From Candidatus Spechtbacteria bacterium (lineage in GTDB: Bacteria; Patescibacteriota; Minisyncoccia; Spechtbacterales; JACPHP01): a stretch of DNA of 64,000 nt. Made by a program: the position numbers and the translations under genes. Positions within the stretch are counted from its first letter, which is position 1; each line of letters starts with the position of its first letter. The stretch covers positions 18,833 through 82,832 of the forward strand of contig JACPHP010000015.1 in assembly GCA_016188605.1 (NCBI GenBank), read 5' to 3'. Positions 38,418 to 59,940 of this stretch are shown piece after piece. Below the pieces are notes generated by a model, which saw only the letters and a list, made by a program, of their open reading frames with translations, searched no databases and had not been told where the DNA came from.

Positions 38418-38522
38418 GGCGGCTACCTACTTTCCCGGGACGAACCAAGTATCATCGGCCTTGGAGCATTTCACTTCTGTGTTCGGAATGGGAACAGGTG
38501 GGACAACTCCAGTATCGCCGCC
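38418..38522 (-). rRNA. rrf: 5S ribosomal RNA
   Basis: Reverse complement reads GGCGGCGATACTGGAGTTGTCCCACCTGTTCCCATTCCGAACACAGAAGTGAAATGCTCCAAGGCCGATGATACTTGGTTCGTCCCGGGAAAGTAGGTAGCCGCC. Helix I ends pair. Confidence 0.8.
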
Positions 38523-38844
38523 ATTGAATGACTACAATAAAATATTCTTTGACGAAATAAACAATTAAGATTCTTTTATTGAAAAGAGCCTTGTAATTCT
38601 GCGGTTGCGCATCATACAAATAAAGTCGGATATACTTAGTACTGCTCGGCTTAATCCCTCTCGGGGCTTACACCTGCAGCCTATCAACCTGATAATCTTT
38701 CAGGAATCCTGAGTTCTAATCTTGGGGCGAGTTTCACGCTTATATGCTTTCAGCGTTTATCTCTTACGAACGTAGCTACCCAGCAATGCTCTTGGCAGAA
38801 CAACTGGTAGACCAGAGGTTCGCTCTCTCCGGTCCTCTCGTCAC

Positions 38845-39720
38845 TTTTCCCCCTATTTCTAGGAGCGCAGACTATATCTTCATCCTCTCTAATTTTAATT
38901 AGAGTAGGAGTTGGCGTATTACCCATATGTCAGCGTATTCTTCCTTGTCAGCCTCTGCATGAATTACAAATAAATGTAATTCAACGCTTAGGCTGAGTGG
39001 AATACTTGCAGAACATATAAGTCGTTATGTTCGATTAATCTCAAACATAATCAGTCGTTACGGGGTTAAATCTAGAATTTTATACAATTCGCTTTTTGTT
39101 TTCTTCCTCTTAGTAACGTAATTTTCTCTTTGGATTACTAAGATAAAGTCAACAAGTTCTGCTAATTGCTTTTTTGTTAGCTGATTAAATTTTGTAGAGG
39201 CTAGAATTTCGCATGCTTTAAGTAATGCGGAAGCTTGAAGTTCCTTGAAACGAATATAAGGCAATAAATTTTTAAGAATATCTCTTATTTGCTTATAACC
39301 ATTTATCCGAAGCTCGGTCATCCCATCATTTCTTTTGGAAATATAACCGATTCTTAGAATTTCTTGTATCCAATACAAAGTTTTTTCATGTCTGGTGTCT
39401 TGATAAAAACAAATGACTGGCATAAATCGAATTCCGATTGCGCCATCCTTACGCTTTTTTATTTGAAGCATAAGACTTCCGTCTCCATCAAGGAAACCAG
39501 ATATGTACGCTAACTCAATTTTAGATCGACTTCCCACGGTATTATCTTATCACATTCTGGTCCTCAAGCAAATTCCGACATATCTAAGGACCGTGTGATA
39601 TGTTTTCTCATTCGAACCAAAATAATAATTAAGATTTCACCGTTATTAGCCAAATTGTCATCGCAAATTACTTCGCGAAGTAGCAGGGCCTTAAAGGCCT
39701 ACTAGGAGAGACCCCCCTCA
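38845..39720 (-). mobile_element. Group I intron (I1) in the 23S sarcin-ricin-loop region, carrying a LAGLIDADG ORF
   Basis: Exon breaks after ...CTCCTAGTA and resumes ...TGACGAGAGGACC. Conserved group I S-element GATGAAGATATAGTC at 38880-38866. Boundaries approximate. Confidence 0.6.
39058..39537 (-). CDS. LAGLIDADG homing endonuclease (single-motif)
   Basis: YISGFLDGDGSL motif. 159 aa, inside intron I1. Confidence 0.8.
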   Translation of the reverse strand: MGSRSKIELAYISGFLDGDGSLMLQIKKRKDGAIGIRFMPVICFYQDTRHEKTLYWIQEILRIGYISKRNDGMTELRINGYKQIRDILKNLLPYIRFKELQASALLKACEILASTKFNQLTKKQLAELVDFILVIQRENYVTKRKKTKSELYKILDLTP

Positions 39721-39861
39721 AAACTCGACGCCTGCAACAGATAGAGACCAACCTGTCTCACGACGGTTTGAACCCAGCTCGCGTACCGCTTTAATTGGCG
39801 AACAGCCAAACCCTTGGGAGCTTCTCCACCCCCAGGATGCGACGAGCCGACATCGCTGTCG

Positions 39862-40285
39862 AATTTTTTTGTGATCCATACTTTCATATGGCTTAGACTA
39901 TATCTTCATCTCGTCTCGGATACCAGTGTTAAATAACACATCATATCTCAATTTTTTTGACGAGAGTCGGCGTGTTGCCTTGCACTAAATGGCAAAGCCT
40001 CCCCTTTCGGGTCAGTCGTTACGGGGTTACAACCGGTGCCAATGCACCGGAAATCCCAAATCCCAATTTTCAATTTCCAATCAAATCCCAATTACTTAAA
40101 TCCCAAAACGTTTTGGTCATTAAATCATTTAGTCATTGATTGGTCATTGGAGTTTGGTCATTGGTCATTCCAGCACTTTGTGCTGGTCGAACTTCCCACG
40201 GTGTTGCCGGGCGACATGTCTCTATCATGTCACTGACGGGTTCTCCGTTATAAGCCGAATTTGTTGGTAGAGCATTGCTGCTCTA
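39862..40285 (-). mobile_element. ORF-less group I intron (I2) at the ~L2500 site of 23S
   Basis: Exon GTTTGGCACCT | intron | CGATGTCGGCTC. S-element GATGAAGATATAGTC at 39907-39893. Interior contains tcccaaa/ggtcattg simple repeats. Confidence 0.55.
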
Positions 40286-40419
40286 GCACCCCGATGTTTC
40301 AAGGTGCCAAACCGGGCCGTCGATATGGACTCGCGGGCCCGATTAGCCTGTTATCCCCAGGGTAACTTTTGTCTGATGATCTTCTCCTTTTCTATGAAAA
40401 AGAGTCGGTTCACTAAGTT

Positions 40420-57893: not shown

Positions 57894-58796
57894 AAGACTC
57901 GGGAACGTATTCACCGCGCCATAGCTGATGCGCGATTACTAGCGATTCCGGCTTCATGAGGTCGAGTTGCAGACCTCAATCCGAACTGGGGCTAATTTTG
58001 ATGGGATTTGCTCCGCCTTACGGCTTGGCGTCCCTCTGTAATTAGCCATTGTATCATGCGTGTTGCCCAGGGCATCAAAGGGTCATGCTGATTTGGCGTC
58101 ATCCCCACCTTCCTCCCCGTTATGCGGGGCAGTATCGTGTGACACATATAACACACAATAGGGGTTGCGTTTGTTACCGGACTTAACCGAGCGCCTCACG
58201 GCACAAACTGACGACAACCATGCAACACCTGCCCAATTGTCCTTGTGAGACATTCTCCCTTTCGGGAGAACTTCAACTGGGTGTCAAGCCCTGGTGAGGT
58301 TCCTCGTTTGTCATCGAATTGAACCGCATGATCCACCGCTTGTGCGAGTCCCCGTCTATTCCTTTGAGTTTTAGCCTTGCGGCCGTACTACCCAGGCGGA
58401 ATACTTAACGCGTTAGCTTCGCCACGTGTAGGGTCGACACTACACACAGCTAGTATTCATCGTTTACAGCGTGGAATACTGGGGTATCTAATCCCATTCT
58501 CTCCCCACGCTTTCGTCCCTCAGCGTCAGAGTCATGCCAGCTGATTGCCTTCGCCTTTGGTGTTCCCCATGATATCAACGGATTTCACTCCTACACCATG
58601 AGTTCCATCAGCCTCTCATGCTCTCTAGTTTTGACGTTTCCTGCGCAGATTCAAGGTTAAGCCCTGAAATTTAACACTGGACTATCAAAACCGCCTACGG
58701 ACGCTTTACGCCCAATAATTCCGGATAACGCTCGGGGCCCTCGTATTACCGCCGCTGCTGGCACGAGGTTAGCGGCCCCTTATTCCTGAAGTACAA

Positions 58797-58940
58797 TCAA
58801 ACCGCTCCTCGCTACGCTCGGAGCACACCGATAAACGCAGATACGAACACGGATATACGCGGATATAATAATCCGTGTAAATCCATTTTCTTATCCGTGT
58901 GAATCCGTGTACGTTCCGAACGCAGTGAGGAACGGTCTTT
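58797..58940 (-). repeat. IVS-like insertion (family-A-related) in the 16S ~450-480 variable loop
   Basis: ~140 nt absent from E. coli 16S between ...CTGAAGTAC and GAAAAGCAGTTTACAACCCGAAGG. Shares cgaacacggatatac / ccgtgt words and a ccgaacgcagtgaggaac end with the 23S copies. Confidence 0.6.
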
Positions 58941-59284
58941 TTCCTTCAGAAAAGCAGTTTACAACCCGAAGGCCTTCATCCTGCACGCGGCGTCGCTCGG
59001 TCAGGCTTTCGCCCATTGCCGAAGATTCTCGACTGCAGCCTCCCGTAGGAGTAGGGCCCGTGTCTCAGTGCCCTTGTTGGGGGTCGTGCTCTCACACCCC
59101 CTACCCGTCATAGCCTTGGTGGGCCATTACCTCACCAACTAGCTGATAGGCCACAGGCCATTCCAGTACCACCTGAGTTTTACTTGCTCTTGCGAGCAAG
59201 ACCATCAAGTATTAGCTCCGATTTCTCGGAGTTATTCTTGAGTACTGGGTATGTTCCTATGTATTACTAACCCGTTCGCCACTA

Positions 59285-59400
59285 TCCTACGCTCCGCGCT
59301 ACGCGCGGAGCTACGGAATAGCAAGCTCTCCCATATTTTGAGCGCCTGCGATTCCGAAGCTCCTCACGCAGTGAGGAGCGAAGGATCGTTCGACTTGCAT
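59285..59400 (-). repeat. Structured insertion, family-B-related, in the 16S 5' domain (V1 region)
   Basis: cgctccgcgctacgcgcggagctacggaatagcaagctc...gcgattccgaagctcctcacgcagtgaggagcgaaggatcg. Confidence 0.5.
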
Positions 59401-59940
59401 GCCTTATCCACGCCGCCAGCGTTCATCCTGAGCCAGGATCGAACTCTTAAAATAAACGAAGTTTATTTTAAGCCCATCCGAAGTTCCGACGAAGTCGGAA
59501 CGCAGGAGGGCCATACAAAACTTCGTTAAATACCAATTTGAAACAACTCTTGAATGTTCAACGTAAAGTTGCAGAGCAACCACGTTGCAAGCAACATAAA
59601 GGGCTCTACGCCCCACGTTGCAAGCAATAATTGTTTTTGTTTCTCGCACATTTGTATATTTGAGGGTGTTGCTCCTCGCCTATACGTTGCCCCCTTCGGG
59701 GGACTTGGCTCTAAAATGTTACGTAGAAATATAAATAAATATACTTCTACGTTTAATAATAATTACAACGTAAAGTTGCGTGGCAACTCCGTAAAGAGGG
59801 CGTGGCCCTCCACGGAGGGTTTTACGCCCCACGTTGCTTTACGCAAGAAAATGTAATTATTATTAAAGCTGATTCTGTTCAGTTGTTAATGTTCATCCGA
59901 AATATTTTCTATTAAATACAATACTTTCGGATACGTAGAC

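Follow-up and report, generated by a model that had tools for sequence, protein, structure and literature searches.

Unlinked rRNA genes in a Candidatus Spechtbacteria genome as a probable expanded version of an rRNA backbone shared among Parcubacteria

The canonical bacterial rRNA operon, as in E. coli rrnA, rrnD and rrnH, runs from the 16S gene through tRNA-Ile(GAT) and tRNA-Ala(TGC) to the 23S and 5S genes, with about 0.4 kb between 16S and 23S. How, then, does a bacterium come to have the same set of genes spread across 21 kb, with protein genes in between? This question is raised by a stretch of 64,000 nucleotides (positions 18,833 to 82,832 of contig JACPHP010000015.1, assembly GCA_016188605.1), referred to here as the window. 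It derives from Candidatus Spechtbacteria, a tiny groundwater bacterium belonging to the Parcubacteria/Paceibacteria within the Candidate Phyla Radiation (CPR), whose genome has a mean G+C content of about 44%. An original prediction, made from the letters of the window, described the arrangement as an rRNA operon pried apart by insertions. We conclude that the locus very probably is the Spechtbacteria rRNA gene set in an expanded version of a lineage-wide backbone.

We determined the gene order using Rfam, ARAGORN and BLAST against E. coli rRNA. All stable-RNA genes are located on the minus strand, where they read in the order 16S (56296..59454; Rfam, BLAST and reading of the sequence), a block of five protein genes, tRNA-Ile(GAT) (48519-48591; Rfam, ARAGORN), tRNA-Ala(TGC) (48127-48200; Rfam, ARAGORN), a gene for a PAP2/undecaprenyl-diphosphatase-like membrane protein (47302..47808), a PF05552 gene, 23S (about 38615..45784, with approximate boundaries) and 5S (38414..38525; Rfam, BLAST). 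Four minus-strand ORFs and one plus-strand ORF separate 16S from tRNA-Ile. From the 3' end of 16S at about 56296 to the 5' end of 23S at about 45784 the distance is about 10.5 kb, and this interval holds seven protein-coding ORFs in place of a short internal transcribed spacer without coding genes. The unlinking with protein genes in between, the co-orientation of the rRNA and tRNA elements, the retention of both spacer tRNAs, the 10.5-kb separation and the 3.1-kb span of 16S had all been proposed beforehand and are confirmed; the length of 16S is due to two insertions. The window resembles the canonical operon in its gene order on one strand and in the leader/trailer stems at 16S and 23S. It differs by the 10.5-kb spacing, the seven protein genes, one of them antisense, and seven insertions within the rRNA genes, as well as by predicted internal terminators and a putative separate promoter for 23S.

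That CPR bacteria typically have their 16S and 23S genes unlinked is established in the literature. Patescibacteria are placed by Brewer et al. 2019/2020 (bioRxiv 10.1101/705046) among the clades with exclusively unlinked rRNA genes, and Lui, Nielsen and Arkin 2021 (PMC8172020) count 27 of 34 circularised CPR genomes as unlinked. The Paceibacteria distances of the latter paper range over 6.5–256 kb, and its S1 Table has in addition a compact array of 1375 bp, 'linked by 1 tRNA, 1 ORF'. The 10.5 kb found here exceed the 1500 bp, taken from 16S 3' to 23S 5', above which Brewer et al. call genes unlinked, and with the plus-strand ORF 48822-50645 the locus falls into class D of Lui et al., 'unlinked by distance' (same strand, more than 2000 bp, an opposite-strand gene in between). 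Distance, the common strand, the opposite-strand gene in between and the joint position of 23S and 5S are shared with the loci described in the two papers. What they give, in the portions used, are distances and classes, not spacer contents. The window keeps both tRNAs and the PF05552 gene in order, and therefore the steps of the separation can be read.

About 90 related loci were examined in all, comprising 80 metagenome loci with a PF05552 homologue (35–47% identity), several contigs of closer relatives and genome contigs selected via a 23S signature. They were annotated with BLAST, ARAGORN and tblastn and are given below by L numbers. The signature scan contributed no more than 16 loci, none longer than 8 kb and many lacking the upstream side; of these, only Azambacteria L025 and Spechtbacterales L023 proved informative. 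The comparison revealed a common backbone on one strand: 16S, tRNA-Ile(GAT), often tRNA-Ala(TGC), the PF05552 gene, 23S, 5S and a homologue of the window ORF 35855-36673. Complete 16S-to-23S arrays with the PF05552 gene are present in L037, L039, L053, L056, L069, L076, L078, L086, L094 and L110, and across many Parcubacteria this gene is located between the spacer tRNA(s) and 23S. In 30 of the 55 loci with sufficient downstream sequence, the start of 23S is no more than 1 kb past the PF05552 stop codon, and in 37 it is found anywhere downstream. In the window the PF05552 gene (46428-47111, minus strand) encodes a two-repeat transmembrane protein of 227 aa and stops 643 nt before 23S in the same orientation. 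The protein is 'MscS-like' in its N-terminal helices only; the MscS channel domain is absent. The downstream edge of the backbone is the ORF of 272 aa at 35855..36673 on the minus strand (w272), whose homologue directly follows 5S in relatives, at a distance of about 220–330 nt, whereas in the window it is displaced from 5S by a gap of 1.7 kb. At least 10 loci have a w272 homologue behind 5S or 23S, and Azambacteria L025 shows the order PF05552-23S-5S-w272.

The most regular signal in this backbone is a promoter-like site ahead of 23S. Candidate promoters, in the window by a consensus scan, were scored as matches to the sigma-70 consensus out of 12 positions. A match of at least 10/12 occurs in 29 of 32 PF05552-to-23S spacers, compared to 3.6 expected from shuffles, and its TTGACA is nearly always perfect. 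It is located about 150–360 nt ahead of 23S in relatives (380 in L008) and about 525 nt upstream of 23S in the window, where it reads TTGACA-18-TG-TATCAT with an extended -10 TG (46339..46310, minus strand, 11/12). The site ahead of 16S (59941..59969, minus strand) reads TTGACA-17-TAATAT, scores 10/12 and lies about 490 nt upstream of the 16S 5' end. Both promoter-like elements are found where the original prediction had placed them; the 23S site had been regarded as the weaker of the two, which is not borne out by its score or by its retention in the relatives. Leader/trailer stems of 26–39 nt enclose 23S in L037, L094, L110, L062 and L114, with differing sequences and preserved complementarity. 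Retention of the promoter match in 29 of 32 loci argues that the transcriptional separation of 23S-5S from 16S is the ancestral state. From these sequence comparisons we infer that the PF05552 gene and a separate 23S-5S transcription unit would be old features of the lineage and not insertions. The earlier description of an operon pried apart by insertions consequently holds for the five-gene block and the PAP2 gene, which are absent from all of the related loci, and fails for the PF05552 gene, a resident across many Parcubacteria. It had also been noted beforehand that an ancestral layout would make the locus less notable. Synteny indicates that this is essentially the case for the separation of 23S-5S at the level of transcription, while the cassette, as we call the five-gene block, and the PAP2 gene are specific to this lineage.

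In three of the compact loci the PF05552 gene starts only 34–42 nt past tRNA-Ala, and in such versions it would ride on the 16S/tRNA transcript. 23S-5S would form its own transcription unit even where it is only about 1.4 kb away from 16S, so that even compact arrays are probably two transcription units. The compact array listed by Lui et al. as 'operonic by tRNAs and ORFs' is the same as that of L037, L039 and L053, with 16S, tRNA-Ile, one ORF and 23S. The S1 Table leaves this ORF unnamed, and neither the table nor the rRNA-operon section of that paper mentions a 23S promoter; in the loci compared here the ORF is the PF05552 gene and the promoter-like site is conserved. We found no description of the resident PF05552 gene or of a conserved internal promoter in the literature searched, which is a limited negative.

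The loci thus form an ordered series from compact (16S, tRNA, one ORF and 23S within about 1.4 kb) to dispersed, with the same resident gene and internal 23S promoter-like site. This suggests a route of unlinking in which a transcriptional split came first and was followed by repeated insertion of genes into the spacers. Insertions into the spacers would cost little because 23S is predicted to have a promoter of its own, and this low cost would explain why different ordinary genes are found there in different relatives. In its most general form, which we propose tentatively and judge slightly less probable than its opposite, the rRNA 'operon' in a large part of Parcubacteria would since long ago have been a composite locus, with the PF05552 gene as a fixed resident between the spacer tRNAs and 23S: the PF05552 protein would be made from the 16S/tRNA precursor, its message being freed by tRNA processing, 23S-5S would be transcribed from its own promoter, and unlinking would have begun as a promoter split within a contiguous locus, whose spacers then served as permissive landing sites for genes, the five-gene module of the window being one example. 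Provided that 23S is indeed transcribed from a promoter of its own, a distance-based classification as 'linked' or 'unlinked' would misassign the compact arrays. The window itself is an ordinary case of the known rRNA unlinking in CPR; modest leads are offered by the five-gene module and by the conserved composite backbone, including the predicted promoter inside it.

Three pieces are specific to this genome: the five-gene module of about 6.5 kb, the PAP2 gene between tRNA-Ala and the PF05552 gene, and a block of 67% G+C after 5S. For the five-gene block and the PAP2 gene, no homologue was found in the same spacers of any of the approximately 90 related rRNA loci, and we therefore regard them as lineage-specific additions to an older layout. 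The spacer between 16S and tRNA-Ile measures 380 nt in L070 and about 1.4 kb in L074, two loci that nearly match the window in 16S helix 45; neither holds a cassette homologue. Other genes occupy the spacers of relatives, among them a MurC-like ligase, MFS and EamA transporters, PMT glycosyltransferases, a CCA-adding enzyme, a ParB-like protein and an ABC/FtsX/RND cluster. The last of these is on the opposite strand within the 6.4 kb of genes that separate 16S from tRNA-Ile in Azambacteria RIFCSPHIGHO2_01_FULL_44_55, where tRNA-Ala, a MurC-like gene and the PF05552 gene follow past tRNA-Ile and 23S is located elsewhere. The variety of ordinary genes indicates that these spacers have been invaded repeatedly and independently, and that the window is one such case. 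Recurring ORFs of about 430 aa in the spacers of relatives were considered as transposases and proved to be ordinary genes. The upstream genes of Spechtbacterales L008 are alike in length to the cassette genes and show no similarity to them, so that they were rejected as homologues. The relatives' spacers are too diverged to align, which precluded locating exactly where the cassette was inserted.

Gene 1 of the cassette (54568..55380, minus strand) encodes a kinase-like protein of 270 aa from a GTG at 55380, within a longest ORF reaching to 55536, and matches phrog_3043 'kinase' with E 1.4e-11. Gene 2 (53380..54537, minus strand) encodes a protein with a von Willebrand factor A (vWA)/integrin beta-I-like fold and a DTTGSM motif resembling a metal ion-dependent adhesion site (MIDAS); its predicted structure has a pLDDT of 91.8 and the Foldseek match an E of 8e-7 at a TM score of 0.37–0.39. 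The product of gene 3 (51915..53309, minus strand) is a divergent adenylosuccinate-synthetase-like enzyme of 464 aa, which matches PF00709 over its full length with 127 bits and also phrog_1211. Gene 4 (50747..51892, minus strand) encodes an all-alpha protein with an N-terminal SAM/HhH-like domain (predicted structure with pLDDT 88.4), and a fold search against PDB matched only this N-terminal part. Gene 5 (48822..50645, plus strand), convergent with gene 4, encodes 607 aa with a C-terminal Pol-beta-type nucleotidyltransferase (NTase) motif. Sequence-profile searches of PDB were empty for the vWA-like and the all-alpha protein. Gene 3 stays below the NCBIfam cut-offs for PurA (TIGR00184, 83 vs 395 bits) and PurZ (NF038379, 21 vs 300 bits). 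It is like PurZ and adenylosuccinate synthetase in the full-length PF00709 match, and the N-terminal GDxGKG and the GxHG histidine can be aligned by eye; unlike them, it always sits together with the vWA, kinase-like, all-alpha and NTase genes.

All five genes are kept in order and orientation in L017/L018, from another Spechtbacteria genome, in L019 and in L020, from a genome of 1.19 Mb. None of these copies has an rRNA gene or tRNA-Ile/Ala within 10 kb, and the neighbourhood differs in each. Homologues for the cassette number over 500. The gene 3 product is 63–79% identical across CPR classes, and similarity at the DNA level among the copies ends with the coding part. The vWA protein of the window is closest to proteins from Moranbacteria and Daviesbacteria, at 67–72% identity, and only 52% identical to the other Spechtbacteria copy, whereas the PurA-like gene ranks the copies of Spechtbacteria and other CPR in the opposite way. 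These opposite rankings point to exchange or recombination among CPR genomes. The designation as a 'foreign cassette' is therefore supported with respect to position and to a similarity pattern that disregards taxonomy, and it has to be qualified since the module is conserved within Patescibacteria. In this limited sense the sequences suggest a portable module internal to CPR, with no donor outside CPR indicated. Its conservation is unusually strong, and it deserves attention in its own right, apart from the rRNA question.

The conserved unit in differing contexts, with a similarity that varies gene by gene without regard to taxonomy, would also be expected of a mobile or conflict-type island that targets stable-RNA loci by site-specific integration. 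Its G+C content of 48–53% stands out from the 39–47% of the immediately adjacent parts of the locus, and its content (kinase-like, vWA, nucleotide enzyme, NTase) resembles what we take to be the kind of genes seen in conflict systems. In addition, the cassette together with tRNA-Ile is bracketed by partial tRNA-Ala copies and a 34-nt inverted repeat. We nevertheless consider such an island unlikely. No integrase, transposase or recombinase is found in or beside the cassette, a statement that extends to domains in any ORF of 46–56 kb, and the other copies are not near rRNA genes or tRNA-Ile/Ala. A similar G+C content is found in other regions of the window. The partial tRNA copies, a 5'-end copy at 48377..48402 (minus strand, 25/26 identical) and a copy of the 3' half plus trailer at 47983..48048 (minus strand, 63/67 identical), lie 176 and 51 nt from tRNA-Ala and flank this tRNA, not the cassette. 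The inverted repeat consists of a 34-nt double-hairpin element in the 16S trailer (56163..56196) and an inverted copy in the spacer that separates tRNA-Ile from tRNA-Ala (48280-48313; 94%, with 0 expected by chance); the other cassette loci lack the element. No direct repeats were found flanking the cassette, which carries neither a recombinase nor the boundary of an intact tRNA with a direct partial copy that characterizes tRNA-targeting integrative elements. PADLOC returned no system match; the NTase motif gave weak matches to PDC-S09 (E 4.5e-4), and the other four proteins gave none. The partial tRNA-Ala copies and the 34-nt element would fit with scars of rearrangement.

From consensus and structure matches, we propose that the signals of the window delimit several transcription units. 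The promoter at 59969..59941 would drive 16S, whose precursor would be cut out via a stem formed by a leader arm of 21 nt (59531..59551, minus strand) and a trailer arm (56051..56071, minus strand), which are 90% complementary. Transcription would end at a cluster of terminator-like palindromes after 16S (55794..55987), which are perfect at 55951-55987 and 55794-55845 and include a further one at 55917-55940. The cassette operon would halt at the hairpin 50675-50649, a bidirectional terminator-like structure between the convergent genes, facing the opposite-strand NTase gene. Divergent promoter-like sites lie between the latter gene and tRNA-Ile (48672..48739), one for the NTase gene (48712-48739, plus strand, 11/12) and one before tRNA-Ile (48701..48672, minus strand, 9/12). 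tRNA-Ile and tRNA-Ala would form one unit, possibly with the PAP2 and PF05552 genes, and a terminator-like hairpin is located just after the PF05552 gene (46410..46382, minus strand), ahead of the 23S promoter-like site. The promoter at 46339..46310 would then drive 23S-5S, whose precursor would be cut out via the stem 45937-46017/38548-38606 and would end at 38398-38349, a perfect 25+25 palindrome followed by a T-run on the minus strand. The leader arms of this stem on the minus strand are 45937-45964, pairing with 38579-38606 (28 nt, 93%), and 46000-46017, pairing with 38548-38565 (18 nt, 83%), the trailer arms being located in the 23S-5S spacer. Hairpin terminators after 16S and 5S had been predicted, and perfect palindromes are present at both places. 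By inverted-repeat search the long-range complementarity encloses 16S and 23S individually. Folding of 150-nt leaders against trailers as RNA duplexes was tried and discarded in favour of this search, as it produced long spurious duplexes with z between -1.7 and +1.4 relative to shuffles.

The same signals bear on the reading that a single operon is transcribed from the promoter upstream of 16S through 5S as a transcript of about 21 kb, with internal signals arising by chance or through processing. Co-orientation of the rRNA genes, the tRNA genes and most protein genes speaks for such an operon, as do the similar compact arrays that Lui et al. counted as 'operonic by tRNAs and ORFs' and the short distance from tRNA-Ala to the PF05552 start in compact relatives. 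We give it very little credence, since the opposite-strand gene of 607 aa with its shared hairpin at 50649-50675 stands in the path, three strong hairpins follow 16S, the near-consensus 23S promoter is kept in nearly all related loci and separate leader/trailer stems are found around 16S and 23S.

Hardly any weight is left for a chimeric metagenome-assembled genome (MAG) contig in which 16S was joined to an unrelated cassette-bearing fragment, so that the order 16S-cassette-tRNA would be false: rRNA regions are frequent break or misjoin points in short-read MAGs, and 55551 and the vicinity of 56302 are where all independent Logan contigs end, but the 16S trailer arm at 56051-56071 pairs with the 16S leader, so that at least 245 nt beyond 16S belong to it, the 34-nt element at 56163-56196 has its only other copy between tRNA-Ile and tRNA-Ala on that contig, the junctions of cassette with tRNA-Ile and of the PF05552 gene with 23S are reproduced in other runs (independent Logan assemblies are 100% identical over 55551-48547 and 47280-45467), and the named Azambacteria genome has an analogous order of 16S, 6.4 kb of genes, tRNA-Ile, tRNA-Ala, a gene and PF05552. 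Several Logan contigs from different runs start exactly at 55551 and at 47280, the latter position falling inside a palindrome with a 20-bp stem in the PAP2-PF05552 intergenic region (47251..47294). The starts at 55551 could reflect population heterogeneity upstream of the cassette.

The reading of the locus as an expanded backbone is weakened by several points. Its promoters and terminators are matches to a consensus or a structure only, and outside the PF05552-to-23S spacer the promoter-like sites are less regular, with 6 of 10 16S-to-tRNA spacers and 6 of 16 tRNA-to-PF05552 spacers containing one. Several relatives within Spechtbacterales (L011, L013) do not have their PF05552 gene beside 23S, which suggests that the backbone has eroded within the order and leaves the direction of some changes uncertain. 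Moreover, 'lineage-wide' was judged from PF05552 identity (35–59%) and a few named genomes, most loci being metagenome contigs. The segment 56300-55551, from the 16S trailer to the cassette, is covered by the MAG contig alone and by no independent Logan contig. Finally, neither a target-site duplication nor an integrase or transposase accounts for the arrival of the cassette.

Both large rRNA genes are interrupted. The exons of 16S are at about 59454-57890, 56887-56783 and 56331-56296. On the minus strand, insertion 1 (56888..57889) follows E. coli position ~1395 and contains a LAGLIDADG ORF at 56915-57484 (PF00961, E 7.5e-18), and insertion 2 (56332..56782) follows position ~1498 and is group I intron-like (RF00028, 35 bits, below the gathering score); the boundaries are approximate. 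The five insertions of 23S, also on the minus strand with approximate boundaries, are located at about 43399-43024, 42989-41949, 41628-40531, 40298-39856 and 39699-38842. By BLAST against E. coli rRNA they correspond to positions of about 1919, 1950, 2272–2369, 2503 and 2657. LAGLIDADG ORFs within 23S lie at 42032-42901, 40694-41344 and 39058-39537 on the minus strand. Four ORFs in rRNA insertions are above the cut-off for PF00961 or PF03161, and introns are predicted here from the sequence. A match to RF00028 at 39875-40311 in 23S, with 50.1 bits against a gathering score of 50, is the sole group I match to reach the threshold; six more at 28–45 bits stay under the Rfam gathering score. Multiple insertions in 16S and 23S, LAGLIDADG ORFs and group I signatures are likewise described for the intron-rich CPR rRNA genes of Brown et al. 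2015, and the window shows no notable difference from these. A segment of about 120 nt is doubled inside 23S as near-identical pieces (40434-40556 and 44204-44325), and a hairpin element GCTCTTTGC..GCAAAGAGCGAAGGA is present at two sites of 23S (43431-43556 and 45411-45519) and also in the 23S of L016. Such repeats within the rRNA may represent expansion segments or else small hairpins that are mobile.

At its 3' end, 16S reads GGATCATTTTTT (56296-56331) and lacks the CCUCC of the anti-Shine-Dalgarno (anti-SD) sequence. Among relatives, four 16S 3' ends are without CCTCC (L066, L086, L094, L102), two carry TCTCC and four are canonical. Tsurumaki 2022 reports such a loss for roughly half of Parcubacteria. 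The possibility that a third 16S intron conceals the anti-SD was considered and rejected, because no CCTCC is found downstream and the loss is documented in part of Parcubacteria. At least 12 genes of the window, all five cassette genes included, are preceded by AGGAG or GGAGG at SD spacing. As a mark of foreign origin these motifs are not clean, since other window genes (61647, 62104, 62576, 5626) have them too.

The G+C-rich block specific to this genome spans about 1 kb (36946-37975, 67% G+C) between the 5S terminator and the 272-aa ORF. Its best frame is a minus-strand ORF at 36980-37810 with a third-position G+C (GC3) of 0.76, which has no Pfam match and resembles hypothetical proteins of Pseudanabaena phages only weakly (40% over 72%). 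The block appears to be either a third insertion into the rRNA locus, acquired by horizontal transfer, or a misjoin. At its edge, TGATCACCTCCTTTCTCTAG (36949-36968, plus strand) resembles over about 15–19 nt the canonical 16S 3' tail, which is GGATCACCTCCTTTCTAG in relatives. Read on the minus strand, the same positions give a perfect SD sequence of 15 nt with no ORF behind it. A donor operon or a 16S end may have left this match as a remnant.

Among the loci compared, L011 (Spechtbacterales) carries a 23S_rRNA_IVP/bAvd-family gene (PF05635, 6274-6633) a few genes upstream of its PF05552 gene, with no 23S nearby. In L022, L026, L033 and L034 (Peribacteria/Gracilibacteria), tRNA-Ile and tRNA-Ala are located between 16S and 23S on the strand opposite to the rRNA genes. 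In the window itself, five sites (8295, 48297, 56024, 56167 and 56396) carry a small hairpin motif, CCGCCTNNGGCGG, amounting to 7 strand-wise matches compared to 0.01 expected, and four of these sites adjoin stable-RNA genes or fall inside them.

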